DNA of 64,000 nt from an uncultured Methanosarcinales archaeon (GTDB taxonomy: Archaea > Nanobdellota > Nanobdellia > Woesearchaeales > ARS49). The notes beneath the pieces were generated by a model that was not told the origin of the DNA, searched no databases, and was given only the letters and a program-made list of their open reading frames with translations. Below, in pieces: positions 1 through 26,394 of this stretch. The stretch covers positions 130,695 through 194,694 of the forward strand of contig CAYGVI010000003.1 of assembly GCA_964353335.1 (NCBI GenBank), given 5' to 3'. The translations under genes were made by a program, and so were the position numbers. Each line of letters begins with the position of its first letter. Within the stretch, counting starts at the first letter, position 1.

Positions 1-1076
1 TCATAGCGGCATCAATAAACGCGCACACTACTGAGACAATATTCTTTTACGGCTTCGTCATATTCATTTTAATCATCAAGTCACTTCTAAGGAAGATAAA
101 CAAGGCTGAGCTCCTGCAGTTCTTAAAAATACTTGGGCTCGCAACTCTTCTTGCAATCCTGCTGTCAGTAAATTATTTGCTGATTTTTTACAACGGATAT
201 GTCACCGAAAGCGCAAAAAGCTATATTGAATTCAAGCCAGTATCCCCTGAGGCATTTGAAGCAATCCGAGTTCCGCCTTTGCAGGATTTCCACTGGCCGG
301 TTCTTACTGCAATCCTGGTTGGAATAGGCGCGGTTATCCTGCTTATCAGAAAACAGCAGCACACCGCAATCCTGGTTTCAGCATACATGCTTTTGGTCGG
401 CCTTACAAATTACATAGGCATGCATTACCGCGCATTCCAGACAAGGTTCTTTTGGCCAATCTACCTTGCGCTATTTTTCGGGCTGGCATCATACATTGCA
501 GTCCATAAAGTAATAAAAGGAAAATCATTATACTTCATAATCAGCGTCATTCTCGCTGCTGTAATCTTCAACAGCTATTACCAGCCAGTGCATTCAGATA
601 TACCTTATCAAGGCCAATGGGACGGATTCAAGTGGCTAGAGCAGAATACTCCTGCTGATTCCCACACTCTGATGTTCTATGGCGACGGCTACAGCCAAGA
701 CATACGCCTCCTGAAGAGGATAAAATCATCAGTTGAAGTATCCGACTATGAACGTTTCTTGAAATCATTGCCTAACAGGACAATCATAGTGACCCCTTAC
801 ACGGAAAACTACATGAAATACCTACATCGCAAAAGCTTTTTCGAGTTCGGATATTATGTGCCAGAACTAAGCCTTAACCTTGGCGCCCAGCCCGCGGACA
901 TTTGCCAATATGATTATTATTTAATTGACAGGGCAAGCGCTTATGCACCACAACTGGTTCAGGCAAACATACAAATCGCAAACATATTTATCAACCATAA
1001 CATGAGCATCTCATTCCAGAATGATAATGTTGCAATACTGAAAAACAGCAATCCTGGCGGTGAATGCATTGGCTGA
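1..1076 (+). CDS. GT-C-fold integral membrane glycosyltransferase (ArnT/PMT-like), 5'-partial (continues upstream of window)
   Basis: Frame of ORF 177..1076 is open back to position 3 (no stop codon), so it is a truncated gene. It encodes many TM helices followed by a soluble C-terminal domain whose tail ([14 protein letters not shown]) and motif QNTPADS..F.G match paralog 2104..3732. Confidence 0.6.
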   Translation, partial: IAASINAHTTETIFFYGFVIFILIIKSLLRKINKAELLQFLKILGLATLLAILLSVNYLLIFYNGYVTESAKSYIEFKPVSPEAFEAIRVPPLQDFHWPVLTAILVGIGAVILLIRKQQHTAILVSAYMLLVGLTNYIGMHYRAFQTRFFWPIYLALFFGLASYIAVHKVIKGKSLYFIISVILAAVIFNSYYQPVHSDIPYQGQWDGFKWLEQNTPADSHTLMFYGDGYSQDIRLLKRIKSSVEVSDYERFLKSLPNRTIIVTPYTENYMKYLHRKSFFEFGYYVPELSLNLGAQPADICQYDYYLIDRASAYAPQLVQANIQIANIFINHNMSISFQNDNVAILKNSNPGGECIG

Positions 1077-1413
1077 ACTTGCACAAATCAAGCAGGAATT
1101 GAAATGGCTCGCAATTGGCTACATTGCGCTCTCAATAATCATATTCATCGCATTCCAGAAGAGCAGCATCATAGAAATCCTCAGGACAACTGCCAGCCTT
1201 TACTGGATGTTTGTCCTGCCAGGCTACACACTCTCATTATGCTCAAAGCAGGGATTTGTGGACAGGCTTATTATTGGAGTGTCAGTTCAGGCAGCAGTAT
1301 TTGGGCTTGCCAGCTATTATGCAGGCCTTGCAGGCTGGCATATAGCAACCCATGGGATTGTTCTGCCATTGATAAGCATCATAGTAGGATTGATTTTGTG
1401 GTGGAAAAAATGA
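1060..1413 (+). CDS. small 3-4 TM membrane protein (PGYTL motif), partner of GT-C genes
   Basis: 117 aa hydrophobic ORF; paralog of 3723..4070 (shared PGYTL motif); stop overlaps next start (ATGA at 1410-1413). Confidence 0.5.
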
Positions 1414-2102
1414 AAACCTTGTCAATAATAATGCCGGTATTTAACGAGAAAAAGACAATCCGCACAATCCTTAACAAAGTCCAGAAAGCAAAACTTCCTG
1501 TCAGCAAGGAAATCATAATTGTTGATGACTTCTCAACAGACGGCACGCGCAACATCCTGAAAAAGCTGAAAGGAGTCAAAATCTTTTACCACCCGCAGAA
1601 CAGGGGGAAGGGCGCGGCAATCCGCACAGGCTTTGGGCACGCGACAGGAGACATAATCACAATACAGGACGCTGACCTTGAGTACAACCCGCAGGAATAC
1701 GCAAAGCTCCTCAAACCGATTCTTGAAGGAAAGGCAAATGTGGTGTACGGCTCGCGGTTCAAGGGTCGGGCTTTCAGCTACCAGGCTCTTGCAATTCCCA
1801 CGCATTACATCGGCAACAGGTTCCTCTCGCTTGTCACGACATTATTATACTGCCAGTGGGTAAGCGACATGGAGACATGCTACAAGATGTTCACCAAGGA
1901 AGTCCTGCAAACTCTTAACCTGAAAGGAAACAGGTTTGAGATAGAGCCTGAGATAACTGCGAAAATAATGAAGAAAGGCTTCAAAATCCTTGAGCTTCCC
2001 ATAGTTTACCACCCAAGAAAGTGGAACGAGGGCAAAAAAATAAACTGGCGCGACGGAGTAAAGGCATTGTATTACCTGATGAAGTACCGCATAAGAGACT
2101 GA
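1410..2102 (+). CDS. GT2 glycosyltransferase, dolichyl/polyprenyl-phosphate sugar synthase (Dpm1-like)
   Basis: [33 protein letters not shown] motifs typical of GT2 DPM/DPG synthases. The real start is the ATG at 1410; the N-terminal 100 aa of the track ORF 1104..2102 is out-of-frame overlap with the previous gene. Confidence 0.85.
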
Positions 2103-2103
2103 T

Positions 2104-3732
2104 ATGGAGCGCGAAGAAATATTCACAATAATTGCAATCCTCGCAATAGTCTGCCTTGGATTTTTCGCAAGATATGCCCCATACAGCAGCGCAATAATCC
2201 ATAATTTTCCTGCAACAATAGGCGCAGGAGACCCTAACTCAAGGCTTAGCGAAGCAGAATACGTGCTTGAGTCAGGAAGCGCAAAGTTCATGCCTCCCTG
2301 GTTCACAGGCGAAAAAGACCTTATGACAACACAGCCGCCATTGAACCTCATAATCGCAGCAATGGTTGCCGGCGCTTCTGGAATAAACGTCTTTGATGCA
2401 TTCTACCTTGACGCAGTCCTTGCCTCAATCGGGGTTGCATTGTGCTTTTTTGTCCTGTTCTCAAGGATTTTCAAGAACAAAACCATGGGGCTTGTTGCGG
2501 CAGCAGCACTGATTTACCCCCTTGAGGAGTTTTTCAGCTATCAGATTAATATTGGAATGTATGCAAACTACTCAACAATACTTTTTTACCCGATAATTTT
2601 GTTGTTTGCTTATGAATTTTCATCAAAGCCATCCTGGTCAAATGCATTTTTGCTTGCTTTGGGCTTTGCAATGCAGTTTTTGATGCACTCAAGCGAAGCA
2701 GTTGTGTTTGGAGCAGCAGTTGGCTCTTACCTTTTGATTTTTGAGCACAAATCAATAGGCTGGAAAAAGCTAATTGGCGCAGGAATAATCTTTGCAGTCC
2801 TTATTGCGCCTTATTTTCCAATACTTTACTCAAACTTTATCCTGGCAAACTTTGGCGGAGAAGGTGAGGAAAGCTCGATTTTCCAGGGCAAGGAGATAAC
2901 AGCCCCAAGCTATGAGCCCCAGATTTTCCTCACAAATGTTGTCCACCCTGTGCTTTACATTCTCCTGCTACTTGCAATCGTCCTGACTTGGAAGAAAAAG
3001 GAATTCCGCTTCCTTAACTACATTTTCCTTTTCTACATCGCCGTTATTTTCATCCTTGCCAAGTTCGGCATAGGCACTTACTACGTCACAATCCGCACAA
3101 GGCCAATATTTTTCGTATTTACATATCCCTTAGTCGCAGTCGGTCTTTACACCCTTGCATCAAGCATCAGAAAATTCCTGCCTGTGAAAAAGGAAATATT
3201 TTTCACAGCACTTGTTGCCCTTCTGGTTATTGGACAAGGCTACCTTATCCACAAAGAAGCCCAGCAGCGCCAGGGAATTTTCACAGAAGATGCCTACAAA
3301 GGCTTCCAGTGGGTGAAGCAAAACACCCCTGAGGACTCAACAGTGCTTTGCTTTGGCTGCCAGCAGTTTGAAGGCCTCACATCACACCGCGTTATTGCCC
3401 AGCCAATGTATTGGGACGAAAGAAGCGTGAACCAGATGGCTGGCTTTGCCACAAACAGCACAAACTCTTCATTATGGCTTGAGCTTTGCGGCTATTCTGA
3501 CCAGCGCCTTGCAAAGAAAGGCTTGTTTGGGTTTGAAAAGCGCGGAATAACCGGCTATCATGAAAGTGACATTTGCGGGTTTGACTATTTCATAATCAAG
3601 CCTTATGGCAATGCAGGCCAATTGATGGTGCAAATAGGCCAGAGACTTTTGCAGAACAATGCAACACAAGCGTATTCAAACAACAATCTTGCAATCCTGA
3701 AGAATAACAACAAGGGAGGGAAGTGCATATGA
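2104..3732 (+). CDS. GT-C-fold integral membrane glycosyltransferase (ArnT/PMT-like) with C-terminal soluble domain
   Basis: 542 aa, about 11 TM helices, acidic residues in the first extracytoplasmic loop (GDPNSRLSEAEY), C-terminal about 190 aa soluble domain ending NNNKGGKCI like paralog 1..1076. Confidence 0.7.
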   Translation: MEREEIFTIIAILAIVCLGFFARYAPYSSAIIHNFPATIGAGDPNSRLSEAEYVLESGSAKFMPPWFTGEKDLMTTQPPLNLIIAAMVAGASGINVFDAFYLDAVLASIGVALCFFVLFSRIFKNKTMGLVAAAALIYPLEEFFSYQINIGMYANYSTILFYPIILLFAYEFSSKPSWSNAFLLALGFAMQFLMHSSEAVVFGAAVGSYLLIFEHKSIGWKKLIGAGIIFAVLIAPYFPILYSNFILANFGGEGEESSIFQGKEITAPSYEPQIFLTNVVHPVLYILLLLAIVLTWKKKEFRFLNYIFLFYIAVIFILAKFGIGTYYVTIRTRPIFFVFTYPLVAVGLYTLASSIRKFLPVKKEIFFTALVALLVIGQGYLIHKEAQQRQGIFTEDAYKGFQWVKQNTPEDSTVLCFGCQQFEGLTSHRVIAQPMYWDERSVNQMAGFATNSTNSSLWLELCGYSDQRLAKKGLFGFEKRGITGYHESDICGFDYFIIKPYGNAGQLMVQIGQRLLQNNATQAYSNNNLAILKNNNKGGKCI

Positions 3733-4070
3733 GCCTGAAATACCTTGCAGGAGCAGTAATTGCAGTCCTTGCCCTTACAACTTACTTTTCAGGCAGTATT
3801 TCAGAAGGATTCATACTCGGCATCTCCCTGATAATGCTTGGGCTGATTCCAGGCTACACTTTGCTTACTTTCCTCATGAAAGACCTTGAAGAGCTTGAAA
3901 AAACAATACTGGGATTCTTCATTGGCATCTGCTCAACTGCAATGCTGTTGTACTACCTTAATTTCATCGGCATTGCAAGCATAAAGCCAGTATTCAGCTA
4001 TGGCATTGGAATAATCTGCCTTGCTTTGCTCGCGGTAAAAAAGTTTAAACAGCCAAAAAAGGTGCAATAA
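3723..4070 (+). CDS. small membrane protein (PGYTL motif), paralog of 1060..1413
   Basis: 115 aa, 3-4 TM; same position relative to a GT-C gene as 1060..1413. Confidence 0.5.
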   Translation: MHMSLKYLAGAVIAVLALTTYFSGSISEGFILGISLIMLGLIPGYTLLTFLMKDLEELEKTILGFFIGICSTAMLLYYLNFIGIASIKPVFSYGIGIICLALLAVKKFKQPKKVQ

Positions 4071-5134
4071 TGTACCAGACAAGAACAATATTCAAGCCGT
4101 TTCTGCTTTTGACTGACATAATTGGCTATGTTTTTTTCTTCTGGCTCAAGTTCAGAAGGGTTCCAGAGCCTAAAAAGATTCTTTGCATTAGGATTGACCA
4201 CATTGGAGACGTGCTTCTCACAACCCCTGCATTCAGGGCTCTTAGAAAGCGCTATCCAAAGGCAAGGATTGATGTGCTTGTGCGCTCTTTTTCAAAAGAA
4301 ATACTTGACGGCAACAAAAACATCAGCAAAATTCTCACTTTTGACTTTCCCTGGCTTGGCTTGCACGGCAAAAAAGCATCCTGGAAAGAAACAATTAGCT
4401 TCATAAAACAGCTAAGAAAGGAAAAATATGATATCGCCATTGATTTCCACGCAGACCCGAGGAATATCTGGCTCGCAACAAAGGTCGCAAAGTACAGGAT
4501 TGGATATGGAATACGCGGATTTGGCTTCCTACTAAACAAAGTAGTGCCTTACAAGCCAGCAAGACACCAGATTCAGAGAAATTTTGACCTTGTCCGCGCG
4601 CTTGGAGCCAATGCAAGCCAAGAAATGGATTTCATAATCCCTGCATCTGCAAAAACAAAGGCAAAATCACTTCTCAAGCAGGCTGGAAATGCAAAACTTG
4701 TTGGAATTACTCCAGCAACAGGAAGAAAGCCAAAATACTGGCTTAATGAACGCTGGGCGCAGGTTGCCGATGCACTTGTTGACAAATATGGAGTAAAAAT
4801 AGTGCTTACAGGCGGAAAAGGAGATGCTAAAGACATTGAAGAAATAATCAGCAATATGACCCACAAAGAAAATATCATAAATCTTACAGGAAAAACATCG
4901 CTGAAAGAGCTTGGGGCAGTTATCCAGCAGTGCAGTCTCTTCCTAAGCCCTGACACAGGCCCTGCTCACATTGCAAGAGCGCTGAATGTTCCGCTACTTG
5001 AGCTCTTTGGCCCTGAAAATCCAAAGCAGTGGGGCTATAACGAGCCAAAGTTCAGGCACATAAAAAAAGACAAAATGGAAGACATAACAACAGAAGACGT
5101 AATTTCTGCAGTCAAACAAATGAGAGCGCTTTAA
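4070..5134 (+). CDS. GT9 family glycosyltransferase (ADP/GDP-heptose heptosyltransferase, RfaF/WaaC-like)
   Basis: ILCIRIDHIGDVLLTTPAFRALRKRYP...GITPATGRKPKYW...LTGKTSLKELGAVIQQCSLFLSPDTGPAHIA: canonical GT9 heptosyltransferase motifs. Confidence 0.85.
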   Translation: MYQTRTIFKPFLLLTDIIGYVFFFWLKFRRVPEPKKILCIRIDHIGDVLLTTPAFRALRKRYPKARIDVLVRSFSKEILDGNKNISKILTFDFPWLGLHGKKASWKETISFIKQLRKEKYDIAIDFHADPRNIWLATKVAKYRIGYGIRGFGFLLNKVVPYKPARHQIQRNFDLVRALGANASQEMDFIIPASAKTKAKSLLKQAGNAKLVGITPATGRKPKYWLNERWAQVADALVDKYGVKIVLTGGKGDAKDIEEIISNMTHKENIINLTGKTSLKELGAVIQQCSLFLSPDTGPAHIARALNVPLLELFGPENPKQWGYNEPKFRHIKKDKMEDITTEDVISAVKQMRAL

Positions 5135-5180
5135 ACATCACTCTTTTAAAGACCTGCCAACTTTTCCGACTGACTCTAAA

Positions 5181-7115
5181 ATGTGTGGAATAACAGGATT
5201 CACTTGGGACGACAAAAGGCTTGTCAGGCAGATGGCCAGTCTTATTTACCACCGCGGTCCTGACCAGGACGGGTTCTATCATGACTCAAAGGTTTCTTTG
5301 GGCCACAGGCGCCTGAGCATTATTGACCTCTCAGACAGGGGAAGGCAGCCGCTTGAGAATGAAAACGGCGATGTGCTTGTCATTTACAACGGAGAGATTT
5401 ACAATTACAAGGATTTGCGTGCAGAGCTTGAGCAAAAAGGCCACAGGTTTTTCTCGGAAACAGACACAGAAGTGCTTGTGCACGGCTATGAGGAATGGGG
5501 CGCTGCTCTTCCGAAGAGGCTGAACGGCATATTCGCGTTCTGCATTTATGACAGGAAGAACAAACAGCTCTTCCTGGCAAGAGACCACCTTGGTGTCAAG
5601 CCTTTGTATTACCATGACACAGGAAAGCACCTTGTTTTTGCCTCTGAAATCAAGGCAATGCTGCTCGCAGATATCCCGCGCGAAGTTGACCCTGTTGCCC
5701 TGCACGAATACCTCACATTCCGTTATGCCCCTGGCGAGCGCACAATGTTCAGGGATGTCAAAAAGCTACTTCCTGGGCATTATCTTGCTTATGACCTGAA
5801 GACGCGCAAAAAGAAAATTACGCAATACTGGAGCATTGCAATGCAGTCTGATGAAACCCCGAAGAATGACGCGTTTTATGCGAAGCAGCTCCTTGAGCAA
5901 TTGAAGAAAAGTGTTGAAATGCAGCTCATGTCAGATGTTCCGCTCGGGGTTTTCCTTTCAGGCGGAATTGACTCGAGCGCGCTTGTCGGCCTGATGCACG
6001 GGCTCGGCGTTGAGGACATCAAGACCTTTGGCATAGGGTTCACAAACTACAATGACAAGGCAGAGGAAATGAAGCATGCGCGCCTTGTCGCAGACCACTT
6101 TGGAACAGACCACCACGAATTCATTGTCGGACCAGAGGCAATGGAGCACCTTCCTGCTGTTGTCTGGCATATGGACGAGCCTGTCGGAGTTGACACCTCT
6201 ATTCCGACATATCTTCTCAGCAAATTCACAAAGCCCCATGTCACTGTAACGCTTTCAGGGGAAGGCGGAGATGAGGCATTTGGGGGTTATGTGCAGTATT
6301 CAACTATGAAGCTCGCTGAAAAGCTCATCAAGCCCATTCCCGGAATTGTTCGAAGGGGGATAATTGCTCCAATCGGCTCAGTAATCCCTGTCCCTCTCCT
6401 GACAAAGTTCTTCAGGTATCCCGGCTCAATCGGCACAGAAGGAAGGGAGAGGTTTGTTGAGCTTGTCAAAAACGTGCAGGACCGCGCGCGCTCATATGTG
6501 ACAATGGTGTCAATCTTCTCTGACGCTGAAAAGCGCAGGCTGTACTCGCCTGAATTCGCAGAATCAGTTGAGGGCAGGGACATTGTTGAGGAAACGCGGA
6601 AGAAATACTTTAACAACAACCTTGTGCTTGGAGACCAGATTTTCCTGCGTGAAAACACCACTTTCCTTCCTGATTTTGTGCTTTCAAGGCTTGACAAGAT
6701 GACAATGGCATTCAGCATTGAAAGCAGGGTGCCTTTGCTTGACAAGGATTTGATGGGGCTTGTGAGCACAATCCCACGACATTTGAAAAAGAACAAGCAG
6801 GTGTTCAGGATGGCAATGAAAGACATTCTGCCAAAACAGATTGCGCAAAGGAAAAAGACTCCGTTCTATCTGCCAATTGAGTCATGGTACTCACGCGGGC
6901 TGAACAGGATTGGGAACAATGTCCTTGATTCAAAAGAGCCTGTGATGAAGAAATACTTCAGGATGCCTGCTGTCAGGAAGCTTCTTGAAAAGCCTGTTTC
7001 AAGCATGCCCCATAGCAGGCAGTTATGGGCTTTGCTTAATTTTGCATTGTGGCATAAGCTTTATATTGAGCAAAATGTGAGAAAACCCCCAAAGTCATTT
7101 GATGATTTGTATTAG
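5181..7115 (+). CDS. asnB: asparagine synthase (glutamine-hydrolysing)-like amidotransferase (WbpG/AsnB family)
   Basis: MCGITGF N-terminal nucleophile Cys2, class II GATase domain plus PP-loop SGGIDSS synthetase domain; 644 aa. Confidence 0.9.
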   Translation: MCGITGFTWDDKRLVRQMASLIYHRGPDQDGFYHDSKVSLGHRRLSIIDLSDRGRQPLENENGDVLVIYNGEIYNYKDLRAELEQKGHRFFSETDTEVLVHGYEEWGAALPKRLNGIFAFCIYDRKNKQLFLARDHLGVKPLYYHDTGKHLVFASEIKAMLLADIPREVDPVALHEYLTFRYAPGERTMFRDVKKLLPGHYLAYDLKTRKKKITQYWSIAMQSDETPKNDAFYAKQLLEQLKKSVEMQLMSDVPLGVFLSGGIDSSALVGLMHGLGVEDIKTFGIGFTNYNDKAEEMKHARLVADHFGTDHHEFIVGPEAMEHLPAVVWHMDEPVGVDTSIPTYLLSKFTKPHVTVTLSGEGGDEAFGGYVQYSTMKLAEKLIKPIPGIVRRGIIAPIGSVIPVPLLTKFFRYPGSIGTEGRERFVELVKNVQDRARSYVTMVSIFSDAEKRRLYSPEFAESVEGRDIVEETRKKYFNNNLVLGDQIFLRENTTFLPDFVLSRLDKMTMAFSIESRVPLLDKDLMGLVSTIPRHLKKNKQVFRMAMKDILPKQIAQRKKTPFYLPIESWYSRGLNRIGNNVLDSKEPVMKKYFRMPAVRKLLEKPVSSMPHSRQLWALLNFALWHKLYIEQNVRKPPKSFDDLY

Positions 7116-7124
7116 GGGGTTGCA

Positions 7125-8747
7125 GTGAAAACAAATTACAGGGAATTGTATCTTGAAAAATCACTCGCAGAAATACCACGGCTTCTCGGACTAATTGACA
7201 GAAACCCCGCATCCCAGACTTACGGCTGTTTTGACCGCAATTTCTGGCACTACAAGACTGTGGATTTCGCAACAGGAATGGCACAGCTCGGTGTTTTACC
7301 TCTTGCTTATGTCTATACGCAAAAACTGAAGAACAACCCGTATTACAAGCAGCCAAGAATAAGAGAGCTTATCCTTGCTGGAATGCGTTTTATGCCCAAA
7401 TGCTCGCACAAGGACGGCACAACTGATGAGTTTTATCCATTTGAGCGCGCACTTGGGGCAACAGCATTCTCATTGATTGCAGCCACAGAGGCATATTTGC
7501 TGCTTGGCGAGAACCATCCTGACATTGTGGCGTTTTTCAAAAAGCGCGCAAACTGGATGGCGCGCAATACAGAGCCGTCAGTTATTGCAAATCATCAGGC
7601 AGGTGCAGCATTGGCACTTGCGAATGTCTGGAAGATAACTGGCGATTCAAGATACCTCAAGGCAGCAAGGCAGAAAATCAAAAACACCCTTGCGTGGATG
7701 TGTGATGAGGGCTGGTTCAAGGAATACGAGGGCTGTGACCCTGGCTATCACACGTTTACAGTAGATTATCTTGCAAAATACTACAAAAAGACAGGCGACG
7801 AATCTGTGCTTCCTGTGCTTAAGAAAGCAGTTGAGTTCAGCACGTACTTTATCCACCCTGACGGAAGTTATGCAGGGGAATATGGCAGCAGGAACACTGC
7901 GCATTTCCTTCCTCATGGCTTTGAAATTCTTGGAAAGCACTTCCCTGTAGCATTGGCAATTGTCACTAAATTCAGCGAAGGGCTTGCAAACAACAAAAAC
8001 GAGTTCATGAATGATGAAAAATACTTTTTTTACAACCTGATAAACTATTTCCAGACATACCTTGACTGGAATGAAAAGCGCCCGGGCCCTTTTGAGCACA
8101 AAAAAGACTTTGAAAAATACTTTCCAAGGGCACGCATTTACATTTGCAAGCACAAGGACTGGTATGTGGTGTGCTCACTCGCAAAAGGCGGAGTAGTCAA
8201 AGCGTTCAAAAAAGGCAAACTAGTGTTCCAGGACACAGGAATTGTTGCAAAACTGACAAATGGGCGAGTTATTGCAAGCCAGGTCATAGACCAGGCATAC
8301 AAAATCAGTATAGGACCCCATAAACTTTCTGTTACAGGACAGTTCCACTCAATCAACCGCGAGACAATGACCTCTTTCAAGATGATTGCGTTCAGGATGA
8401 TTCTGCTTGTCCTTGCCCGCGTGTGGTGGATGGGCGCCCTTGTAAAAAATCTCTTAATAAAGCGCCTTATCACCAGAAAAAAACACGAAAAAGCGTGGTT
8501 CAGGCGCGACATAAGCATCAGCGACAAAATCTCTGTCACTACAACCCTCAAGCTCGGAGCAGGCAGAAAGGCAGGCAGGCTCTGGCACAGCACAGATGCA
8601 GCAGTCATCCACGTCCCAACAAGCCGTTACTTCCAGGAAGGCGCAATGACGCCCTGGACAGACTGCTCAAATGCAATTCCAGAACTTAATAGGAAAAGAA
8701 GAATTACGATTGAACGAAATACAGAAATGGTGGCGATAACCAAATGA
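7125..8747 (+). CDS. heparinase II/III-like (alpha/alpha toroid + beta-sandwich) protein
   Basis: GTG start with GGGGG RBS. N-terminal region with alpha/alpha-toroid-like repeats and a C-terminal beta-rich domain. The common genomic partner of AsnB-like amidotransferases in polysaccharide loci. Confidence 0.45.
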   Translation: MKTNYRELYLEKSLAEIPRLLGLIDRNPASQTYGCFDRNFWHYKTVDFATGMAQLGVLPLAYVYTQKLKNNPYYKQPRIRELILAGMRFMPKCSHKDGTTDEFYPFERALGATAFSLIAATEAYLLLGENHPDIVAFFKKRANWMARNTEPSVIANHQAGAALALANVWKITGDSRYLKAARQKIKNTLAWMCDEGWFKEYEGCDPGYHTFTVDYLAKYYKKTGDESVLPVLKKAVEFSTYFIHPDGSYAGEYGSRNTAHFLPHGFEILGKHFPVALAIVTKFSEGLANNKNEFMNDEKYFFYNLINYFQTYLDWNEKRPGPFEHKKDFEKYFPRARIYICKHKDWYVVCSLAKGGVVKAFKKGKLVFQDTGIVAKLTNGRVIASQVIDQAYKISIGPHKLSVTGQFHSINRETMTSFKMIAFRMILLVLARVWWMGALVKNLLIKRLITRKKHEKAWFRRDISISDKISVTTTLKLGAGRKAGRLWHSTDAAVIHVPTSRYFQEGAMTPWTDCSNAIPELNRKRRITIERNTEMVAITK

Positions 8748-10207
8748 ACTTTAAGCATTTTGTCCGTAGCGGCATTATTGTCAGCATTCTGTATGGAATT
8801 GCGGCGGTTGTGGGCTATCTGACAAGGCTTTTTCTTTCACACTACGTAAGTATAGATTTATTTGGCTTATTCTATTCAGTATTAACTTTCGTACTTGCAT
8901 TCTCTATATTTTGCGATTTAAGTTTAGGGCAATTACTGCAAATTTACATCCCACAGCTCAGAAAGAAGCGACAATGGGGAAAGATCAAAGGATACATCAC
9001 ATTAGTTTTGGGCTGGAATCTCATAATGCGGTTGATTATTATTGCGATGTTAATTGCAACTGCAAAATTCTTTGCTATTAACTACTTTAAGAACCCAGCA
9101 TCTGAAATCCTCATCTATCTTTTCGCTTTTGCATTCCTATTGAGCGGATTTGGCAGTTTTAGTGCAGGACTTATAGGATTCGGTTTCTTCCGCACAGTGG
9201 CGTTCTTAAATTTTTTCCGCATACTGCTTTATCTATTTGGCTTATACGCAATTTTCTGGATTAAGCCAAACCTGATAGCCGCCACCTGTGCCTATGTTTT
9301 CTCAGTACTTGCTACAGATATTATGACCTTTATTTTATTCATAAAGCGTGCAATGCCTTCATTCTTCAAAATCAAGATGCTGTTGACAAAAGAGATGGTT
9401 TTTGATACATTCAAAATGGGGATAACGCTAACACTTTGCTCTCTCGCATTGCAAGTTATTGGCATTGCAGATACCCTTACAATAACACATTTTAGGCCGT
9501 TAGCGGAATTGGGGTTATATCAGATGGCATTGCCTACGGCAACATTCATTACATCAGTTATCAGCTGGCCAATAAATCTCATGATGCCTGCCACAATTGC
9601 ATATCTTGAAAAATTACAGCAGAGAAAAGCCATCCAACAAGTAAGTCATTTCCTCTTATTTTCAGTTATTCCGATTACTTCATGCGTGATCGTATTCTCT
9701 GGAGAAATCCTTCAAATCCTGTTTAACCAAAGCAGCACTCTTGGCACGTGGATGCTCAGATTACTTGCAATAAATCAAGCAATATTTTTATTTATTCAAT
9801 TTTCAATAAGCAGTCTCATTGGATTAAAACGTGTAAAAGAGCTTCTTAAGATAAGCATCATTATAACTAGCATCATCGTGTTATTAAGTATTTTGGGCGG
9901 TTTTCTTTTTAATGCAATTGGAATAATACTAGGATATCTCTTTTCCTTCATTATATTCTTATTACTTGCGAGGCACACTATTCATAAATTTTGCGGAACA
10001 AAACCAAATTTCATGGTATTTATGCGCGGGTGTGCATTAAGTTTAATTTGCATTGCCGTCATGAGCATAATACGCTTATTAAATATGCCAGTAATCTTTA
10101 AACTTATTTTAGTGGGAATCTGTAGTTTACCATTTTATTTTTGGCTTACGGTAAGTTTTGGTTTAATAAAACCAAGTCTTATAATAAAACGCTTTAAACG
10201 GCAATGA
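8744..10207 (+). CDS. Wzx-like oligosaccharide flippase (MOP/polysaccharide biosynthesis protein family)
   Basis: 487 aa, about 12-14 TM helices, lies in a glycan locus; low-GC codon usage. Confidence 0.75.
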   Translation: MNFKHFVRSGIIVSILYGIAAVVGYLTRLFLSHYVSIDLFGLFYSVLTFVLAFSIFCDLSLGQLLQIYIPQLRKKRQWGKIKGYITLVLGWNLIMRLIIIAMLIATAKFFAINYFKNPASEILIYLFAFAFLLSGFGSFSAGLIGFGFFRTVAFLNFFRILLYLFGLYAIFWIKPNLIAATCAYVFSVLATDIMTFILFIKRAMPSFFKIKMLLTKEMVFDTFKMGITLTLCSLALQVIGIADTLTITHFRPLAELGLYQMALPTATFITSVISWPINLMMPATIAYLEKLQQRKAIQQVSHFLLFSVIPITSCVIVFSGEILQILFNQSSTLGTWMLRLLAINQAIFLFIQFSISSLIGLKRVKELLKISIIITSIIVLLSILGGFLFNAIGIILGYLFSFIIFLLLARHTIHKFCGTKPNFMVFMRGCALSLICIAVMSIIRLLNMPVIFKLILVGICSLPFYFWLTVSFGLIKPSLIIKRFKRQ

Positions 10208-10995: not shown

Positions 10996-11078
10996 TACTC
11001 GCACACAAATTCAGAATACCAAATCCCGTGCATATCTGACCGAAAGACATTTAAATATCGTGCCTACAAAAAGACGAT

Positions 11079-20035: not shown

Positions 20036-20553
20036 AAAAGCTTAATGTTGGCTGCGGAAATGACATAAAGCAAGGATGGACTAATCTTGATTTCAAACGC
20101 ATTTCAGGGGTTGATGTTGTCCAGGATATCAACAAGACCCCCTGGCCATTCAAGGCAAACTCATTTGATGAAGTATTATGCCAGGATGTGCTTGAGCATT
20201 CAGATGATGTCATCTCTGTTATGAATGAGATTCACAGGATTCTCAAGCCAAATGGAATTGTTCTCATCAGAGTTCCTCATTTTACAAGCGCAGGAGCATT
20301 CACTGACCCGACCCACAGGCACTTTTTCGGTTGGGGCTCATTCAATTATTTCCAAAAAGCGAGCAAATATCATTATTACGCAGATTTCTCTTTTGAAATT
20401 GTAAAAAGGAAGCTTGAGTTCGGCAAAAAGTTTGCAATATGGAATTGGCTTGTTCAACCGTTAGTTAACCTTATGCCAATGGTTTATGAAAGTACGCCCC
20501 TGAGGATATTCCCTGCAATGAACCTTCACTTTGCCCTGCGCAAGCCAAAGTGA
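20032..20553 (+). CDS. class I SAM-dependent methyltransferase (Methyltransf_11)
   Basis: MKKLNVGCGND...LKPNGIVLIRVPH. Start at ATG 20032 overlaps the upstream stop (ATGA); the track ORF 19939 start gives a 97-nt overlap. Confidence 0.75.
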   Translation: MKKLNVGCGNDIKQGWTNLDFKRISGVDVVQDINKTPWPFKANSFDEVLCQDVLEHSDDVISVMNEIHRILKPNGIVLIRVPHFTSAGAFTDPTHRHFFGWGSFNYFQKASKYHYYADFSFEIVKRKLEFGKKFAIWNWLVQPLVNLMPMVYESTPLRIFPAMNLHFALRKPK

Positions 20554-22025
20554 GATGCAATCCAAGCGATTTCTTCCCTGCTGACGATTTTCAGCGCAAG
20601 CAAAAGCAGGCAGTATGCAATTCCGCCTGCAAAAGCGCCGATAGCAAGTTCAATCCACGGGTTTAATGACAGCAATGCCTTTACCCCTGAAATTATTCCT
20701 GCAAGGATTATTGCTGCAAGAAGTGTCTTTGCCCAGACCACCCATGGCTCGCGGATTCTCAAAATCCGTCTTATTCCGCGCGAACTAAGCGCAAGCATGA
20801 GCAAATAGCTGAGCGATGTTCCGCAGGCAGCGCCGATTATGCCAAAACGCGGGACAAGCGCGAGATTAAGAATTACATTTGCAACTGCTGAAATGAGCAT
20901 TATTGTTGTGGTGTATTTGGGCCTGCCAAGGCCGAAAAGCGCATTAAGGTTTGTGTAAGCAATAGAGTAAAGCACCATGCCACCCGCAAGAATCTGGAGT
21001 GCAGGCGCTGAATTGATGAATTTGTCCCCAAAAAACAGCCTGATAAAAATTTCAGGGAATGCAATAAGAACCACTGCCATTGGAATTATTGCAATAAACA
21101 CATACTTGTGCAGGAATTCTATTCCTTTTCTCAATTGAATCCGCTTTTTTAGCGCGAGCAGTTCTGATATCAGCGGTGTGGCAACTGCAGATACTGAATA
21201 CGCAACATAAAGCACAAGCCCTGCAAGAGGCGCCGCAACCTGATAAAGTCCGACGCTTGCCAGGTCCTTGAAATAACTGAGCATTAGTGTGTCTGTGTAT
21301 TGCAGGACATTATTGCCGAAAATTGTAAGCATTGCCGGAAGCCCGAAAAGGATAAGGCGGGAAAAGTCCTGTCCTGCAAGCAGTGCGTGCGCTTTCCAGA
21401 ATTGTTTGAACACTTTTTTTGTGAACAGGAAGAAAAAGAACAAAAATACAACCACATACATTATCAGGTAAGCCCAGACCGGTGCAAGAATGCCAAAACC
21501 AAGCCATAAAAGCACAAAAGAAATTGCAAGCACAACAAGGTTTCTCGACAGGTCCTGCAATGAATAAAGAAACATCCTTTGGAAACTCTGTAATCCAATA
21601 GAAACAACATTTTGGGCAAAAGAAACAAAAAATATTATGGCAAATAAAATCAATAATTTGGTATCGCTTGTGTGAAAGAATGTAGGCATTATTTGAGGGG
21701 CAAATGTTATCAGCAGGAATGCAATGATTGCTGAGGAAAACAACTGTATAAGGAAGCTTGATGAAATCAGCGATTTTATCCTGTTCCAGTCTTTTTTGAC
21801 AATAAGCTCTGGAATGAATTTCAGCAGTGCATATCCCTGCCCAAGGTCCTTGAACAAGACCAGCAGGTTTATGAAAGAAAATAATGCGAAGAAAAGCCCG
21901 TAGTCTTCAATGCTGAGTTTCCTTGCGAGCAAAAACCTGAGAAAATACGCGGACAATGCCGCCATAAGTGTAAGAACAAAGACAGTTGCTGCGCCATGAA
22001 GCGCTTTTTTTGCATAAGACACCAT
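20526..22025 (-). CDS. Wzx/MOP-family polysaccharide flippase
   Basis: 499 aa, about 14 TM; typical polysaccharide biosynthesis protein C-terminal architecture. Confidence 0.8.
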   Translation of the reverse strand: MVSYAKKALHGAATVFVLTLMAALSAYFLRFLLARKLSIEDYGLFFALFSFINLLVLFKDLGQGYALLKFIPELIVKKDWNRIKSLISSSFLIQLFSSAIIAFLLITFAPQIMPTFFHTSDTKLLILFAIIFFVSFAQNVVSIGLQSFQRMFLYSLQDLSRNLVVLAISFVLLWLGFGILAPVWAYLIMYVVVFLFFFFLFTKKVFKQFWKAHALLAGQDFSRLILFGLPAMLTIFGNNVLQYTDTLMLSYFKDLASVGLYQVAAPLAGLVLYVAYSVSAVATPLISELLALKKRIQLRKGIEFLHKYVFIAIIPMAVVLIAFPEIFIRLFFGDKFINSAPALQILAGGMVLYSIAYTNLNALFGLGRPKYTTTIMLISAVANVILNLALVPRFGIIGAACGTSLSYLLMLALSSRGIRRILRIREPWVVWAKTLLAAIILAGIISGVKALLSLNPWIELAIGAFAGGIAYCLLLLALKIVSREEIAWIASHFGLRRAK

Positions 22026-22408: not shown

Positions 22409-23092
22409 CTATCTTTTAATAATCATACATTGAGACATGGGTAATTGAATAATTTGTTCATTTTTGTCTTTAAAAAATTCATCAAACGCTTTTTTAACGC
22501 CTTGGGCATGATAATCGTGTGAGATGATTATGCCACCTTTTGACATTTTATCATAAAAAAATTCAAGGCAATCTTTTGTGCTTTTGTAAATATCTACATC
22601 CAGATGTACAAAAGCGAATTTTTTGTTTTGAATGAAATTGCCTGTTTCTGGAAACAGTCCTTTATAAATGTGGACATGGGGATATCTTTGTAGTTTATGT
22701 TTGACTTTTTGAAAGTCAGACTTCCACATTTTTGTCTTGTATTTTGTATCTATTTTATCAACTTCGGGCAGCCCTTCGAATGTGTCAAATAGATGCAACT
22801 GTTTATTGCCTTTCGATTCACATATTGCTTTTGCAGTCGCACCCTTGAATACACCAACCTCTGCATAATCCCCCTCGATACTTGTTTGGTTTTTTGCAAA
22901 GGAATAAACAAAAAATAATTCGCTCGGTTTCAATAAAAATGGGCGGTCCTCGCTAATTATTTGTTTCATTAAATTCATTGTTTTTTTATCATGATAATAT
23001 CCCATGAATTTAAATTCAATACTTGAGAATAAACGCTGAATTGCAAATCCTATGGGGGATCTGCTTATTCTATCAATAAATTTTTGCATCAT
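22409..23092 (-). CDS. TylF/MycF-like (macrocin O-methyltransferase family) sugar O-methyltransferase
   Basis: AEVGVFKGATAKAI ... FVHLDVDIYKST ... GGIIISHDY: class I MTase of the TylF/CmcI type; AT-rich gene. Confidence 0.65.
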   Translation of the reverse strand: MMQKFIDRISRSPIGFAIQRLFSSIEFKFMGYYHDKKTMNLMKQIISEDRPFLLKPSELFFVYSFAKNQTSIEGDYAEVGVFKGATAKAICESKGNKQLHLFDTFEGLPEVDKIDTKYKTKMWKSDFQKVKHKLQRYPHVHIYKGLFPETGNFIQNKKFAFVHLDVDIYKSTKDCLEFFYDKMSKGGIIISHDYHAQGVKKAFDEFFKDKNEQIIQLPMSQCMIIKR

Positions 23093-23201: not shown

Positions 23202-23927
23202 TTACTTATTGTAAACCCCCCTTAAATCGTTCATTCTTATTTTCACAATATCTCTGCCATTATGGGTTATGTTCCCTATCGCAGTGAAATTGCTTGAGTC
23301 AGAATCTATCCATGTGATGGGCACTTCTTTGATATGAAAACCGAATTTTTTTGCGAGATATAGAAGTTCGACATCAAATGCGCCGTCCCTGATTGTCTGC
23401 TTCTCAAAAATAACCCTGCAATGTCTCTTGAACATCTTAAATCCGCACTGGGTGTCCTTTATCTTCATGTTTAATATCAACCGTTTCCAGAAGGAAAAGC
23501 CCCTGCTAAGAACCATCTTGAAAAACTTCCTTTCTATTTTTGATTCCTTGAGCGCTCTTGATGCAATAAGGATATCATAGTCATCAATAATTTCCAGGAA
23601 TTTGTTAACTTCGCATAATGGGGTGCTTAAATCATTGTCATAAAACAGGATAAGGCCGTATTTTGCCTGCATTGCCCCTGCCCTGACTGAAAACCCCTTT
23701 CTCAGGCGTTCCTGGTTGACTATCAGCTTCAGCTCCTTGTTTTTTGAAAGGTGCTTCTGAATTGTGCTGATTGTCTGGTCTCCTGAGCGGTCAGCGACAA
23801 AGATAATCTCAAAATTGCCAATTAGCGGGTTGTTCCTGAAAAAGAACAGAGATTCTATGATGCACCGCTCAACACGCTTTTCTTCCTTGTATACCGGAAC
23901 AACAACAGATATATCGTGCTTTTTCAT
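23202..23927 (-). CDS. GT2 glycosyltransferase
   Basis: ISVVVPVYKEEKRVERCI..IFVADRSGDQT; AT-rich. Confidence 0.8.
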   Translation of the reverse strand: MKKHDISVVVPVYKEEKRVERCIIESLFFFRNNPLIGNFEIIFVADRSGDQTISTIQKHLSKNKELKLIVNQERLRKGFSVRAGAMQAKYGLILFYDNDLSTPLCEVNKFLEIIDDYDILIASRALKESKIERKFFKMVLSRGFSFWKRLILNMKIKDTQCGFKMFKRHCRVIFEKQTIRDGAFDVELLYLAKKFGFHIKEVPITWIDSDSSNFTAIGNITHNGRDIVKIRMNDLRGVYNK

Positions 23928-23993: not shown

Positions 23994-24980
23994 TTAAATT
24001 TCATGGCCGCCGAGATAAACAATTCTTGAACCTTCAGGGTCAAATGCGAATTTAATCTCGCGCAGGGGCAGGCTTTCCCTAAGCTTCTGCTGTTTGTCCT
24101 TGTCGCAGTAAAGCAGCAGGAACCCGCCGCCGCCTGCGCCCAGCAGCTTTCCGCCTGTGGCGCCTGATTCAAGGGCTTTTTTGTAATAAGCGTCAATGAT
24201 GTCATTGGATATTCCCGATGCAATCTCTTTTTTCAGCAGCCAGCCTTTGTTAAGTATTTCCCCGAATGATGAAAGGTCGCCGCCAGTGAGGGCATCGCGC
24301 AGTTCAAACACCAAATCACGCATTTTACACAGCTTCAGCCATTTTTCCTGTTTGAGAGTCTCTTTTTTCTGTTCAGTCAGGATTGTCCGCGACTGGCGCG
24401 TGATTCCTGTGTAAAAAAGCACAAGGTTGTCCTCAAGCGCTTTTTTTGTTTCATCCGGGATTTTGATCGGCTCCACAGCAACACTGCCGTCAGGATTGAA
24501 CCTTATCACATTAAGGCCGCCGAGCGCACAGGCATATTGGTCCTGTTTTCCAATAGGCTCCTTAAGCTCATCAATCTCAATCTCGCACGCCTCTTTTGCA
24601 AGAGTATGGTTTTCCTTGTTCTCATTGAGCGCGGTATAAAGCGCCTTGAGCAGACCGACAGTAAATGCTGATGATGACCCCAAGCCTGTTCCTGACGAGG
24701 GAATATCTGCAAAACTTGCCATTTCCAAAGGCATCTTGTTCTTTGTTTTCAGGAAGCACTGCCTTATGAGGGGGTGCTGTATCTCCTGCGCATCCTTGAT
24801 AAGCTCTGTCCTTGCGTATTTCAGCAGGATATTGTCCTCAAACTGCCTGTTTACTGCAATGTACATGTATTTTTTGATTGTTGTGGACAATACTGTCCCC
24901 TGCTCTTTCTCATAAAATTCCTTCAGGTCAGTTCCGCCGCCTGCAAAACTAATGCGGAATGGGGTTTGTGTGACAATCAC
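23994..24980 (-). CDS. hddA: D-glycero-alpha-D-manno-heptose 7-phosphate kinase (GHMP kinase)
   Basis: MIVTQTPFRISFAGGGTDL..., GHMP kinase motif PLEMASFADIPSSGTGLGSSSAF. Sits in an operon with a nucleotidyltransferase and next to a GmhB-like phosphatase. Confidence 0.75.
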   Translation of the reverse strand: MIVTQTPFRISFAGGGTDLKEFYEKEQGTVLSTTIKKYMYIAVNRQFEDNILLKYARTELIKDAQEIQHPLIRQCFLKTKNKMPLEMASFADIPSSGTGLGSSSAFTVGLLKALYTALNENKENHTLAKEACEIEIDELKEPIGKQDQYACALGGLNVIRFNPDGSVAVEPIKIPDETKKALEDNLVLFYTGITRQSRTILTEQKKETLKQEKWLKLCKMRDLVFELRDALTGGDLSSFGEILNKGWLLKKEIASGISNDIIDAYYKKALESGATGGKLLGAGGGGFLLLYCDKDKQQKLRESLPLREIKFAFDPEGSRIVYLGGHEI

Positions 24981-25714
24981 GTTTTCACCTTTCCTGTCCG
25001 CAGGTCATTCTCTGCCTCTTTTAACCTTTCGGCAGTTCCGATGTCTTTTAGGTATTCTGTGGTGTAATATCCGTAGACCTTGAATTTGTTCTTAACCAGC
25101 GATGGAAGGATATCTTTTCCAAAATCAAAACTGCCTGATTCCGGAATCAGTGAGAAGCATTCGGGGTTAAGTATGTACAATGCCGCATTGGTGATGTTGC
25201 CGTAATCCGCATTTCCCGGCTTGTGCACAAGCTTTTCAACTTCGCCTGACTTGTTCATTATCACCACGTCGCTGTCTTCAGGGTGGCGTGATTCGTGCAC
25301 GACCAGTGTTGCCTGCGCACCGCGCTCAAAATGGAAATCAATAATTTTTCTCAGGTCAATGTTAATCAGCACATCGCCGTACAAGACCACAACAGGCTGT
25401 TTTTCCTTCTCAAGGTGCTTTAATCCGCCGCAGGTCCCCATTGGCTCTTTTTCTACAAAATATTCTATTGCGCAGTTGAAGCGCCCGCCGTTTCCAAAAT
25501 AATCCTCGATTTTTTTTGAAAGATATCCTGTTTTCAACAGAAACCTTGAAAGCCCGTTTTTCCTTGCATGCGACAGGATGTGCTCAAGGATTGGCTTTCC
25601 AAGCAGGTCAATCATTGGTTTTGGCTTGTCAGTTGCAATACCCTGCAGCCTTTTCCCAACTCCTCCTGCAATAATGACCGTTTTAATGTCGCCCAGCGGA
25701 ATATCCATTCCCAC
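24977..25714 (-). CDS. hddC: D-glycero-alpha-D-manno-heptose 1-phosphate guanylyltransferase (NTP_transferase)
   Basis: KTVIIAGGVGKRLQGIATDKPKPMIDLLGKPILEHIL: sugar-1-P nucleotidyltransferase signature; overlaps hddA by 4 nt. Confidence 0.75.
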   Translation of the reverse strand: MGMDIPLGDIKTVIIAGGVGKRLQGIATDKPKPMIDLLGKPILEHILSHARKNGLSRFLLKTGYLSKKIEDYFGNGGRFNCAIEYFVEKEPMGTCGGLKHLEKEKQPVVVLYGDVLINIDLRKIIDFHFERGAQATLVVHESRHPEDSDVVIMNKSGEVEKLVHKPGNADYGNITNAALYILNPECFSLIPESGSFDFGKDILPSLVKNKFKVYGYYTTEYLKDIGTAERLKEAENDLRTGKVKT

Positions 25715-25815
25715 ACCACCATCAATGCGTTACGTACTGTTGTTTTTAAATCTTATTAACTTATAGGGGAGGGAAATACGAAAGCTTAAAAGAGAAGGTC
25801 AACGTGTGATTGAAC

Positions 25816-26394
25816 ATGAACAGAGCAGTTTTCCTGGACCGTGATGGTGTCATTAACAGAAACCTTCCTAATCTGGTGAGCGAGAAACAGTTTGAATTGG
25901 TAAGTGATTCGGTGCCTGCAGCAGTAAAACGCGCAAAAGAGGCAGGATACCGTGTAATTATTATAACAAATCAGCCTGTAATTGCAAAAGGCTTCTGCAC
26001 AAGGGAGGATGTTGAGCGCATACACGAGCATATGAAATCAATTCTTGCAGCAAAAGGTGCGCGTATTGATGCAATCTATGTCTGTCCGCATCATCCTGAG
26101 AAAGGTTTTGCTGGCGAGGTTAAGGCGCTCAAAATAGACTGTGACTGCCGCAAGCCAAAGCCAGGGCTGATACTTCAGGCGGCAAAAGAGCACCAGATTG
26201 ACCTGGGCAATTCCTGGATGATTGGCGACTCTGTTGTTGATGTTGCGGCGGGCAAGGCAGCAGGAGTAAGAACAATACTTCTGGCCGGAAGCGAAAATGG
26301 CAGCAAGGATGAAAAGCGCATAACTGCAGTCCCTGATTTTCAAGCCATTGACATTAATGAAGCGGTTTCTATTGTGCTGAACAATCATACATAA
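25816..26394 (+). CDS. gmhB: D,D-heptose 1,7-bisphosphate phosphatase (HAD, histidinol-phosphatase family)
   Basis: AVFLDRDGVIN (HAD motif I) and the GmhB zinc motif CPHHP...CDCRKPKPG. Confidence 0.85.
   Translation: MNRAVFLDRDGVINRNLPNLVSEKQFELVSDSVPAAVKRAKEAGYRVIIITNQPVIAKGFCTREDVERIHEHMKSILAAKGARIDAIYVCPHHPEKGFAGEVKALKIDCDCRKPKPGLILQAAKEHQIDLGNSWMIGDSVVDVAAGKAAGVRTILLAGSENGSKDEKRITAVPDFQAIDINEAVSIVLNNHT

Follow-up and report, generated by a model that had tools for sequence, protein, structure and literature searches.

The sequence analyzed here, referred to as the window, is the full 64-kb stretch at positions 130,695 to 194,694 of contig CAYGVI010000003.1 (GenBank assembly GCA_964353335.1), which stems from an uncultured archaeon placed among the Woesearchaeales in the GTDB lineage. 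Near its start, at exactly 4070..5134 on the plus strand, the list of open reading frames (ORFs) of the window contains an intact ORF, from ATG to TAA, encoding a protein of 354 amino acids (aa) that is termed GT9c in the following. It matched the Pfam family of GT9 glycosyltransferases (PF01075, Glyco_transf_9) with E = 2.8e-38 and 132.1 bits, the gathering score being 22. An AAGGTG motif resembling a Shine–Dalgarno sequence is located 8 nt 5′ of the start codon, which in turn shares 1 nt (ATGA) with the stop of the preceding gene for a small membrane protein; the overlap and the upstream motif fit GT9c being an expressed member of an operon.

Fold and active site of GT9c

The AlphaFold2 model of GT9c, computed from an alignment of 27 archaeal orthologues, had a predicted local distance difference test (pLDDT) score of 93.7 and a predicted template modeling (pTM) score of 0.90. 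Its top matches in Foldseek were 3TOV, 1PSW, 6DFE, and 2H1H (E between 1e-21 and 1e-15; template modeling [TM] scores of 0.70–0.80), and by sequence the best solved relatives were 3TOV (5.8e-27; profile, 1.4e-46), WaaF (1PSW, 2e-16), and WaaC (1e-11). When aligned as profiles, D13 of WaaC is equivalent to D47 of GT9c, K192 to K222, D261 to D295, and H266 to H300, with E222 being approximately matched by D252. From the structural literature on WaaC, we take D13 to be the catalytic aspartate, K192 the phosphate-binding lysine, and D261 and H266 the ends of the D-T/S-G-x-x-H loop. Among the 27 archaeal orthologues, D47, K222, and D295 do not vary (H300 is conserved in at least 90%), which renders a decayed or non-catalytic GT9c unlikely. 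GT9c is a genuine GT-B glycosyltransferase of CAZy family GT9, as evident from PF01075, the fold, and the conserved residues, and a putative transferase of nucleoside diphosphate (NDP)-activated heptose.

Residues 6–28 of GT9c are predicted to form a hydrophobic helix (Kyte–Doolittle maximum over 19 residues, 1.63) that contains an invariant Asp16 and Gly19 (“ID..G” motif). This additional N-terminal helix is common to two archaeal clades of the family (GT9c and GT9a; see below) and some of their bacterial relatives, but is missing from WaaC, WaaF, and 3TOV. It probably constitutes a membrane anchor or an interfacial helix.

GT9c resides in an archaeal lineage

A preliminary description of this DNA had placed a GT9 gene in an archaeal glycan locus, and this was borne out not only by PF01075 and the GT9 fold, but also by the surroundings: positions 1–32,800 of the window form a surface-glycan island, and the remainder contains archaeal core genes, namely those for topoisomerase VI A and B (50152-52865) and RLI/ABCE1 (42280-44064). 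Further genes encode a RIO1 kinase, a KH/Dim2-like protein, Endo_dU, NFACT, SecDF, and an archaeal-type synthetase of the tyrosyl-/tryptophanyl-tRNA synthetase (TyrRS/TrpRS) class. The GC content across GT9c (∼0.45) is even with the rest of the window. Approximately 60 homologues of GT9c share 37–100% identity with it over their full length, whereas the next ones, from bacteria, reach 36% at most; an identical protein (P0001) is encoded on an NCBI contig of 487,933 bp. Where named, the close homologues all derive from metagenome-assembled genomes (MAGs) of Candidatus Woesearchaeota, Nanoarchaeia, or Aenigmarchaeota, and the bacterial relatives from Poribacteria, Anaerolineae, Planctomycetota, Ignavibacteria, Saccharibacteria, and others. 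Such a distribution indicates that the gene is resident in the archaeal lineage.

As the GT9 family is overwhelmingly bacterial, and as chains of the plant NADH dehydrogenase-like (NDH) complex subunit PnsB1 were among the structural matches of GT9c, one might suspect an artefact, that is, bacterial contamination (a concern already raised in the preliminary description), a contig chimera, or a GT9-like protein that has decayed or has no catalytic activity. Contamination and chimerism were ruled out by the archaeal core genes on the same contig, by the even GC content, and by the GT9c gene order, which is repeated in several independent Woesearchaeota MAGs. A non-catalytic, PnsB1-like protein was rejected in view of the intact ORF and the invariant catalytic residues in the 27 orthologues. 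The probability of an artefact is, thus, considered negligible.

A neighbor-joining tree, which lacks bootstrap support and is indicative only, separated the archaeal proteins into three clades, GT9a, GT9b, and GT9c, the last of which contains the protein of the window. All three are closer to WaaF and 3TOV than to WaaC.

Heptose activation genes accompany the GT9 paralogues in related loci

Related loci are designated by L and homologous proteins by P in the following. In L087, the GT9c of which is 90% identical to that of the window, positions 6170-14635 are collinear with 246-8711 of the window (82% nt identity); in L011 (GT9c 83% identical), positions 6071-14104 are collinear with 132-8179 (78% nt identity). 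The L011 orthologue of GT9c (10054-11026) is present as two overlapping ORFs, with P0021 representing a 232-aa piece, because of a frameshift or an error in the assembly. The start of the window falls ∼550 nt inside the orthologue of a gene for a 542-aa protein of L087, and the gene directly upstream of it in the relatives is GT9b. In L087, GT9b is the last gene of a block with the order GT9a-GmhA-316-aa ORF-HldC-HldA-GT9b, with ∼0.55 kb between its end and the point that corresponds to position 1 of the window. GmhA of this block passes the NCBIfam cut-off (TIGR00441, 212 versus 209.45 bits), as does GT9b that of the heptosyltransferase II (HepII) model (137.8 versus 134.6 bits); HldC (181.1 versus 181.5 bits) and HldA (341.4 versus 345 bits) fall just short of theirs. 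The 316-aa ORF between gmhA and hldC (1773-2723 of L087, minus strand) is oriented opposite to them and has no match in Pfam or NCBIfam. L011 carries the same block, GT9a-gmhA-hldC-hldA-GT9b, and gmhA is located ∼8.2 kb (L087) and ∼7.3 kb (L011) upstream of the GT9c orthologue. The block is of the adenosine diphosphate (ADP)-heptose type by its gene content; the region of the (F/L)xxGRSTT motif is non-canonical in HldC of both L087 and L011 and, thus, uninformative with regard to the nucleotide.

This arrangement, GT9a-gmhA-hldC-hldA-GT9b, or close variants of it, is also found on metagenome contigs (L088-L094), one of which (L091) adds GT9c 6.4 kb downstream; the relatives retrieved from the metagenome scan with GT9b of L087 were at most 73% identical. 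L005, L009, and L010 contain HldA and GT9b ∼8 kb upstream of GT9c. Three adjacent GT9 genes each are present in L014 and L016, where they are accompanied by HddA-type genes, and in L017; L022 contains GmhA together with two GT9 genes. Based on 10-kb flanks of MAG contigs, 9 of ∼14 archaeal loci with GT9c contain a heptose activation gene in its vicinity (eight within 10 kb; the window's own cassette, described below, is ∼19 kb away), compared with only 5 of 68 relatives from bacteria. As phmmer seeds, approximate sequences of GmhA and of the C-terminal part of HldE from E. coli were used; the matches in L087 and L014 were confirmed by NCBIfam and precomputed Pfam data, those in the other loci are phmmer scores only. 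Two of the five bacterial positives, L037 and L083, are Saccharibacteria MAGs with four GT9 genes, GmhA, GmhB, and a PfkB heptose-kinase-like gene, which mirrors the arrangement in DPANN archaea. Saccharibacteria are expected to lack lipopolysaccharide (LPS).

The putative heptose cassette within the window is strain-variable

A cassette of hddA, hddC, and gmhB for synthesis of guanosine diphosphate (GDP)-heptose had been proposed at 23994..26394. The three ORFs do exist, but their names are at the level of best hits, as none of the products reached a curated cut-off. The first (23994..24980, minus strand) encodes an HddA-like GHMP kinase, putatively a D-glycero-D-manno-heptose-7-phosphate 1-kinase, for which HddA was the best NCBIfam model (188.9 bits versus a cut-off of 600). 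The adjoining gene (24977..25714, minus strand) encodes a sugar-1-phosphate nucleotidyltransferase (NTP_transferase, E = 4.4e-34) with a putative HddC role; its best NCBIfam match was mannose-1-phosphate guanylyltransferase (156.7 bits), whereas HddC scored only 82.3 bits versus a cut-off of 300. Divergently from this kinase operon, a GmhB-like heptose-1,7-bisphosphate phosphatase of the HAD-IIIA type is encoded at 25810..26394 on the plus strand (PRK08942, 159.1 versus 178 bits; TIGR00213, 144.5 versus 149.6 bits); the beta-type model scored higher with this protein (159 bits) than the alpha-type model (106 bits). Searches of the window for SIS/GmhA, PfkB/HldA, and HldC, with Pfam for all ORFs of 100 aa or more and with phmmer seeds for all those of 70 aa or more, yielded none of the three. 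An hldD epimerase was not found in the window either; with the short-chain dehydrogenase/reductase (SDR) at 28585-29631, the heptose-epimerase model scored no more than 33 bits.

A GDP-heptose-type function of the kinase/phosphatase/nucleotidyltransferase set is still likely from comparison with homologues, because proteins from Woesearchaeota in which SIS (GmhA) and GHMP kinase are fused (P0137, P0139, and P0140; 533-540 aa) are 61-62% identical to the kinase of the window, and because the kinase gene of L014 has as neighbors a GmhA-like gene, a gene for GmhB fused to an NTP-transferase (16657-17973, 438 aa), and the three GT9 genes. Two kinds of gene fusion, SIS(GmhA)::GHMP-kinase and NTP-transferase::GmhB, thus join heptose steps in DPANN archaea.

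Two further genes belong to the variable cassette, one for a TylF-like sugar O-methyltransferase (22409..23092, minus strand; PF05711, E = 1e-23), which has no orthologue in the related loci L001-L017, and one for a GT2 glycosyltransferase (23202..23927, minus strand; PF00535, E = 1.5e-15), which has none in L001, L003, and L007. In L001 (GT9c 72% identical), L003/L008 (64%), and L007 (66%), a flippase gene directly abuts a gene for a 606-aa protein, with gaps of 33-82 nt; at this site, the window contains 4.7 kb (∼22026-26719) coding for the methyltransferase, GT2, the kinase, the nucleotidyltransferase, and GmhB. As the five genes are missing from these loci although GT9c is kept, the cassette is a strain-variable insertion equipped with its own glycosyltransferase.

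This finding bears on a pairing of the cassette with GT9c, the co-occurrence of which had been pointed out initially; in such a pairing, an α-anomeric NDP-heptose supplied specifically by the cassette would be converted to a β-heptoside. Such a pairing can draw on the location of the cassette within the same glycan locus, on the kinship of its kinase to the SIS::kinase fusions, which ties this family to GmhA, and on L014 and L016, where three GT9 genes are neighbored by HddA-type genes and both HldA and HldC are missing from the surrounding 10 kb. Against this stands that the cassette is 19 kb away from GT9c on the other strand, brings along its own GT2 and O-methyltransferase, and is missing in L001, L003/L008, and L007, all of which have GT9c. 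In addition, GT9c of the closest relatives has gmhA-hldC-hldA as its conserved partner, a block of the ADP-heptose type that is flanked by two more GT9 paralogues. To our knowledge, all characterized GT9 heptosyltransferases use ADP-β-heptose (compare the titles of PDB entries 2H1H and 4RB4). The pairing is, therefore, regarded as improbable.

Proposed function of GT9c

We assign a probability of roughly 0.58 to GT9c catalyzing heptosyl transfer from an NDP-heptose donor, as judged from sequence and gene context. The N-terminal helix would hold the enzyme at the cytoplasmic face of the membrane, where, by analogy to the aligned WaaC residues, Asp47 would act as the base and Lys222 together with the D295-T-G-x-x-H300 loop would hold the diphospho-sugar. 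In an inverting reaction, D-glycero-D-manno-heptose would be transferred from NDP-heptose to a lipid-linked glycan intermediate, which a Wzx-type flippase could then flip, and GT-C enzymes encoded in the locus may decorate the glycan outside the cell. The fact that GT9a, GT9b, and GT9c travel together suggests a short oligo-heptose or a multiply heptosylated structure.

Characterized GT9 enzymes are inverting and use ADP-β-heptose rather than GDP-α-heptose, which makes the gmhA-hldA-hldC route, and hence a donor of the ADP-β-heptose type, the likelier source. The gmhA-hldC-hldA block of the relatives contains no phosphatase; the GmhB-like enzyme of the window could supply this missing step, given its higher score with the beta-type than with the alpha-type model. 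The HddA/NTP-transferase route would, in turn, be an accessory and strain-variable second supply of heptose, α-anomeric and of the GDP type, which may serve the GT2 and the O-methyltransferase of the cassette itself. As no hldD was found, D,D- rather than L,D-heptose would be expected.

Several observations weigh against heptosyl transfer by GT9c. Although all models matched, GT9c remained below every curated NCBIfam cut-off for LPS heptosyltransferases, that is, of the equivalog models for LPS heptosyltransferases I, II, and III (HepI, HepII, and HepIII; TIGR02193, TIGR02195, and TIGR02201) and of the RfaQ, RfaC, and RfaF models. The best-scoring heptosyltransferase model was HepIII (147.5 bits versus a cut-off of 170.2), and HepI (129 versus 185.3), HepII (104.8 versus 134.6), and RfaQ (137 versus 467) also fell short. 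GT9c is, thus, a member of the family and not an equivalog of any characterized LPS enzyme. The ADP-heptose-type block would be situated just 5′ of the window start in this genome, a placement derived from synteny only. In L001, L003/L008, L007, and L017, GT9c is present and the 10 kb around it contain no heptose gene, and the only nearby route in L014 and L016 is of the HddA (alpha) type, so that the anomer and the nucleotide assigned to the GT9c donor above are tentative. Finally, the tree, being without bootstrap support, shows clades of paralogues and supports no direction of horizontal gene transfer. Of the RfaF/WaaC-type heptosyltransferase originally proposed, what stands is the GT9 family, the fold, and the residues, with heptose being plausible by context; the closer assignment does not, all equivalog cut-offs having been missed.

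The same observations can be accommodated by GT9c transferring a sugar other than heptose (hexose, N-acetylhexosamine, or uronic acid) onto a lipid-linked glycan made by its conserved neighbors (GT2, AsnB, GT-C, and the UbiA/SDR/FAD block described below), with only GT9a and GT9b being heptosyltransferases. This would agree with GT9c scoring below all curated heptosyltransferase cut-offs, with its clade being separate from GT9a and GT9b, and with its steadiest neighbors being AsnB and the 606-aa/SDR/SDR/FAD/UbiA block, as well as with the lack of nearby heptose genes in L001, L003, L007, and L017 and in 63 of the 68 bacterial relatives. The latter include Anaerolineae and Actinomycetota, which are expected to lack LPS. 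However, the residues aligned to the ADP-heptose contacts of WaaC are conserved in GT9c, and even its divergent members in L014, L016, and L022 (35-49% identity) are still encoded beside heptose genes. Furthermore, we are not aware of any well-documented GT9 enzyme that uses a donor other than heptose. Transfer of another sugar is, therefore, held to be unlikely, albeit not as remote as a supply of GT9c specifically by the cassette of the window.

Beyond heptosyl transfer by GT9c itself, a wider scenario is put forward tentatively: Woesearchaeales, as members of the DPANN archaea, may assemble a heptose-rich oligosaccharide resembling the LPS inner core on a lipid carrier, employing three GT9 enzymes (a, b, and c), with some strains possessing both activation routes (ADP-β- and GDP-α-type) and Saccharibacteria doing alike. 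We consider it possible, with the odds somewhat against it; were it to hold, archaeal NDP-heptoses would have a concrete use in physiology.

Comparison with known systems

E. coli WaaF (HepII, 1PSW), WaaC (HepI, 2GT1/2H1H/6DFE), and WaaQ/RfaQ (HepIII), all of CAZy family GT9, belong to the same Pfam family and share the GT-B fold with GT9c (TM 0.70-0.80), including the equivalents of D13, K192, and the D261-T-G-x-x-H266 loop of WaaC. A further common feature is the presence of several GT9 paralogues in one locus, which in the relatives of the window also contains gmhA/hldA/hldC-type genes. The identity of GT9c with the E. coli enzymes is only 19-22%, in keeping with its sub-cut-off scores, and it differs from WaaC and WaaF by the hydrophobic “ID..G” helix. 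No lipid A or 3-deoxy-D-manno-oct-2-ulosonic acid (Kdo) gene was observed among the annotated ORFs of the 64-kb window; together with the archaeal host, this suggests that the acceptor of GT9c differs from that of the E. coli LPS enzymes. The best match by both sequence and fold (TM 0.77-0.80, 25% identity) is 3TOV, a GT9 protein from Veillonella parvula; it is bacterial, lacks the N-terminal helix, has no assigned function and, hence, conveys no functional information on GT9c.

The GDP-D-glycero-α-D-manno-heptose pathway (GmhA/HddA/GmhB/HddC) serves the S-layer glycan of Aneurinibacillus thermoaerophilus and capsules or O-antigens of Campylobacter and Yersinia. The window shares with it the trio of GHMP kinase, HAD-IIIA phosphatase, and NTP-transferase, to which relatives add GmhA by adjacency or fusion; it differs in that the trio is sub-cut-off, that the nucleotidyltransferase is nearer to ManC than to HddC, that gmhA is missing from the window, and that the cassette is strain-variable. 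The TibC/Aah heptosyltransferases of the bacterial autotransporter heptosyltransferase (BAHT) family (4RAP/4RB4) are GT-B-like and use ADP-heptose with a non-LPS acceptor (protein). Membership of GT9c in BAHT was dismissed, as there was no sequence match and Foldseek yielded a TM of only ∼0.54 at 13-14% identity.

The initial statement that heptose is essentially undescribed for archaeal cell surfaces proved too strong, as several reports precede the present one. The N-glycan of Thermoplasma acidophilum includes a heptose isomer otherwise found only in some bacterial LPS (2024 review, PMC11407970), an ADP-heptose cluster was described in Iplasma (Yelton et al, PMC3750248), and ADP-heptose operons are situated inside glycan clusters of Methanococcus maripaludis KA1 and JJ (PMC12667266). 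Cuniculiplasma encodes “capsular heptose metabolism” (PMC5155288). Tang et al (2024; via PMC11573728 and PMC11461863) showed archaeal NDP-heptose enzymes to be functional and remarked that why archaea make heptose “remains elusive,” with neighboring genes possibly providing hints. These precedents have in common with the window and its relatives that heptose activation genes lie in surface-glycan loci. They concern Thermoplasmata and Methanococcales, whereas the loci described here are from DPANN archaea and combine three GT9 paralogues with both activation routes. Heptosyltransferases are unmentioned in the passages on archaeal heptose that term searches returned from these sources.

The DPANN lineage, the three co-travelling GT9 enzymes with an additional N-terminal helix, the presence of both routes in one island, and the parallel in the Candidate Phyla Radiation (CPR) appear to be new, being unmentioned in the literature found. 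If GT9a, GT9b, and GT9c are indeed heptosyltransferases, DPANN archaea would carry heptose on their surface, which would provide a structural role for archaeal NDP-heptose and thereby address the question raised by Tang et al (2024). Such a role would further add a likely case of envelope-glycan genes common to ultra-small symbionts from both domains, DPANN archaea and CPR bacteria, and would offer membrane-anchored GT9 enzymes with non-LPS acceptors to biochemistry. The impact is limited by archaeal N-glycan heptose and ADP-heptose clusters being already on record, by databases already labeling these proteins “glycosyltransferase family 9,” and by the organisms being uncultured.

The surface-glycan island and other features of the window

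Overall, the island (1-32,800) encodes five GT2 enzymes, five GT-C-like membrane proteins (PMT_2/DUF6541), two Wzx/MOP flippases, and an AsnB-type amidotransferase, along with several methyltransferases, a B12-radical S-adenosylmethionine (SAM) enzyme, SDR epimerases, a flavin adenine dinucleotide (FAD) oxidoreductase, and a UbiA-family enzyme. At its left end (3..1076, plus strand), the window edge cuts a gene for a 542-aa GT-C-like paralogue, of which the C-terminal ∼357 aa are left (frame 3 is open from nt 3); it is collinear with 5375-7003 of L087 (82% nt identity; L087 6170 equals window 246) and with L011. It is followed on the same strand by genes for a GT2 glycosyltransferase resembling AglJ and polyprenyl-phosphate-sugar synthases (1104..2102; PF00535, E = 5.5e-36; AglJ model, 121.8 bits, sub-cut-off), for a 542-aa polytopic, GT-C-like membrane protein (2104..3732; PF20176 [DUF6541], E = 1.1e-9; PMT_2 weak, 5e-4; orthologue in L087 at 8030-9655), and for the small membrane protein preceding GT9c (3729..4070), which comprises ∼113 aa with several hydrophobic segments and has no Pfam match. 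Its L087 orthologue (113 aa) is also encoded directly 5′ of GT9c. Sets of this kind, reminiscent of GtrABC and consisting of an AglJ-like GT2, a GT-C-like protein of ∼540 aa (DUF6541/PMT_2), and a membrane protein of ∼113 aa, are located at 1104-4070 and 13454-20035, and the module is present twice in L087 as well.

Downstream of GT9c, an AsnB-type glutamine amidotransferase is encoded at 5181..7115 on the plus strand (Asn_synthase, E = 2.8e-82; TIGR03108, 497 bits, sub-cut-off), which is likely to amidate a sugar acid within the glycan. Its gene adjoins GT9c in L001, L011, L012, and L087, and is within ∼7 kb of it in L003 and within 1.1 kb in L005. A candidate flippase of the Wzx/MOP type is encoded at 8744..10207 (plus strand; Polysacc_synt, E = 1.6e-14); the second one (20526..22025, minus strand; Polysacc_synt and Polysacc_synt_3) is conserved and borders the site of the cassette insertion on the left. 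The B12-binding radical SAM enzyme (11079-12434, plus strand) has its best matches, all sub-cut-off, with BchE, HpnJ, and PhpK-type methyltransferases, and is kept in L087.

To the right of the cassette, the block at 26720-32827 encodes the 606-aa membrane protein, which has no assigned family, two SDR epimerases/dehydratases, an FAD protein (“Amino_oxidase”), and the UbiA enzyme. According to NCBIfam, the FAD protein is PRK07233-like (245.5 bits versus a cut-off of 252), and the best model for the UbiA enzyme is decaprenyl-phosphate phosphoribosyltransferase (187 versus 234 bits). The block adjoins GT9c in L001, L003, L005, L007, and L012 and is, thus, conserved. It resembles the mycobacterial pathway for lipid-linked pentose donors of the decaprenylphosphoryl-phosphoribose/decaprenylphosphoryl-arabinose (DPPR/DPA) type and could feed the many GT-C proteins of the locus; we know of no description of such a pathway in archaea. 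When positions 13476-21062 of L007 were compared with 20526-32827 of the window, the epimerases, the FAD oxidoreductase, and the UbiA enzyme were 93-96% identical, but the flippase only 56% and GT9c 66%. This mosaic divergence suggests that the glycan island is hypervariable and that the genomes harboring it are otherwise nearly identical.

Outside the island, ARAGORN predicted three tRNA genes, none with introns: Thr-CGT (42013-42085), Cys-GCA (49539-49612), and Arg-TCT (49711-49787). Near the right end of the window (62430-63485, minus strand), a protein of 351 aa is encoded that matches the Pfam family MATCAP (microtubule-associated tyrosine carboxypeptidase) with E = 1.5e-50, here in an archaeon.

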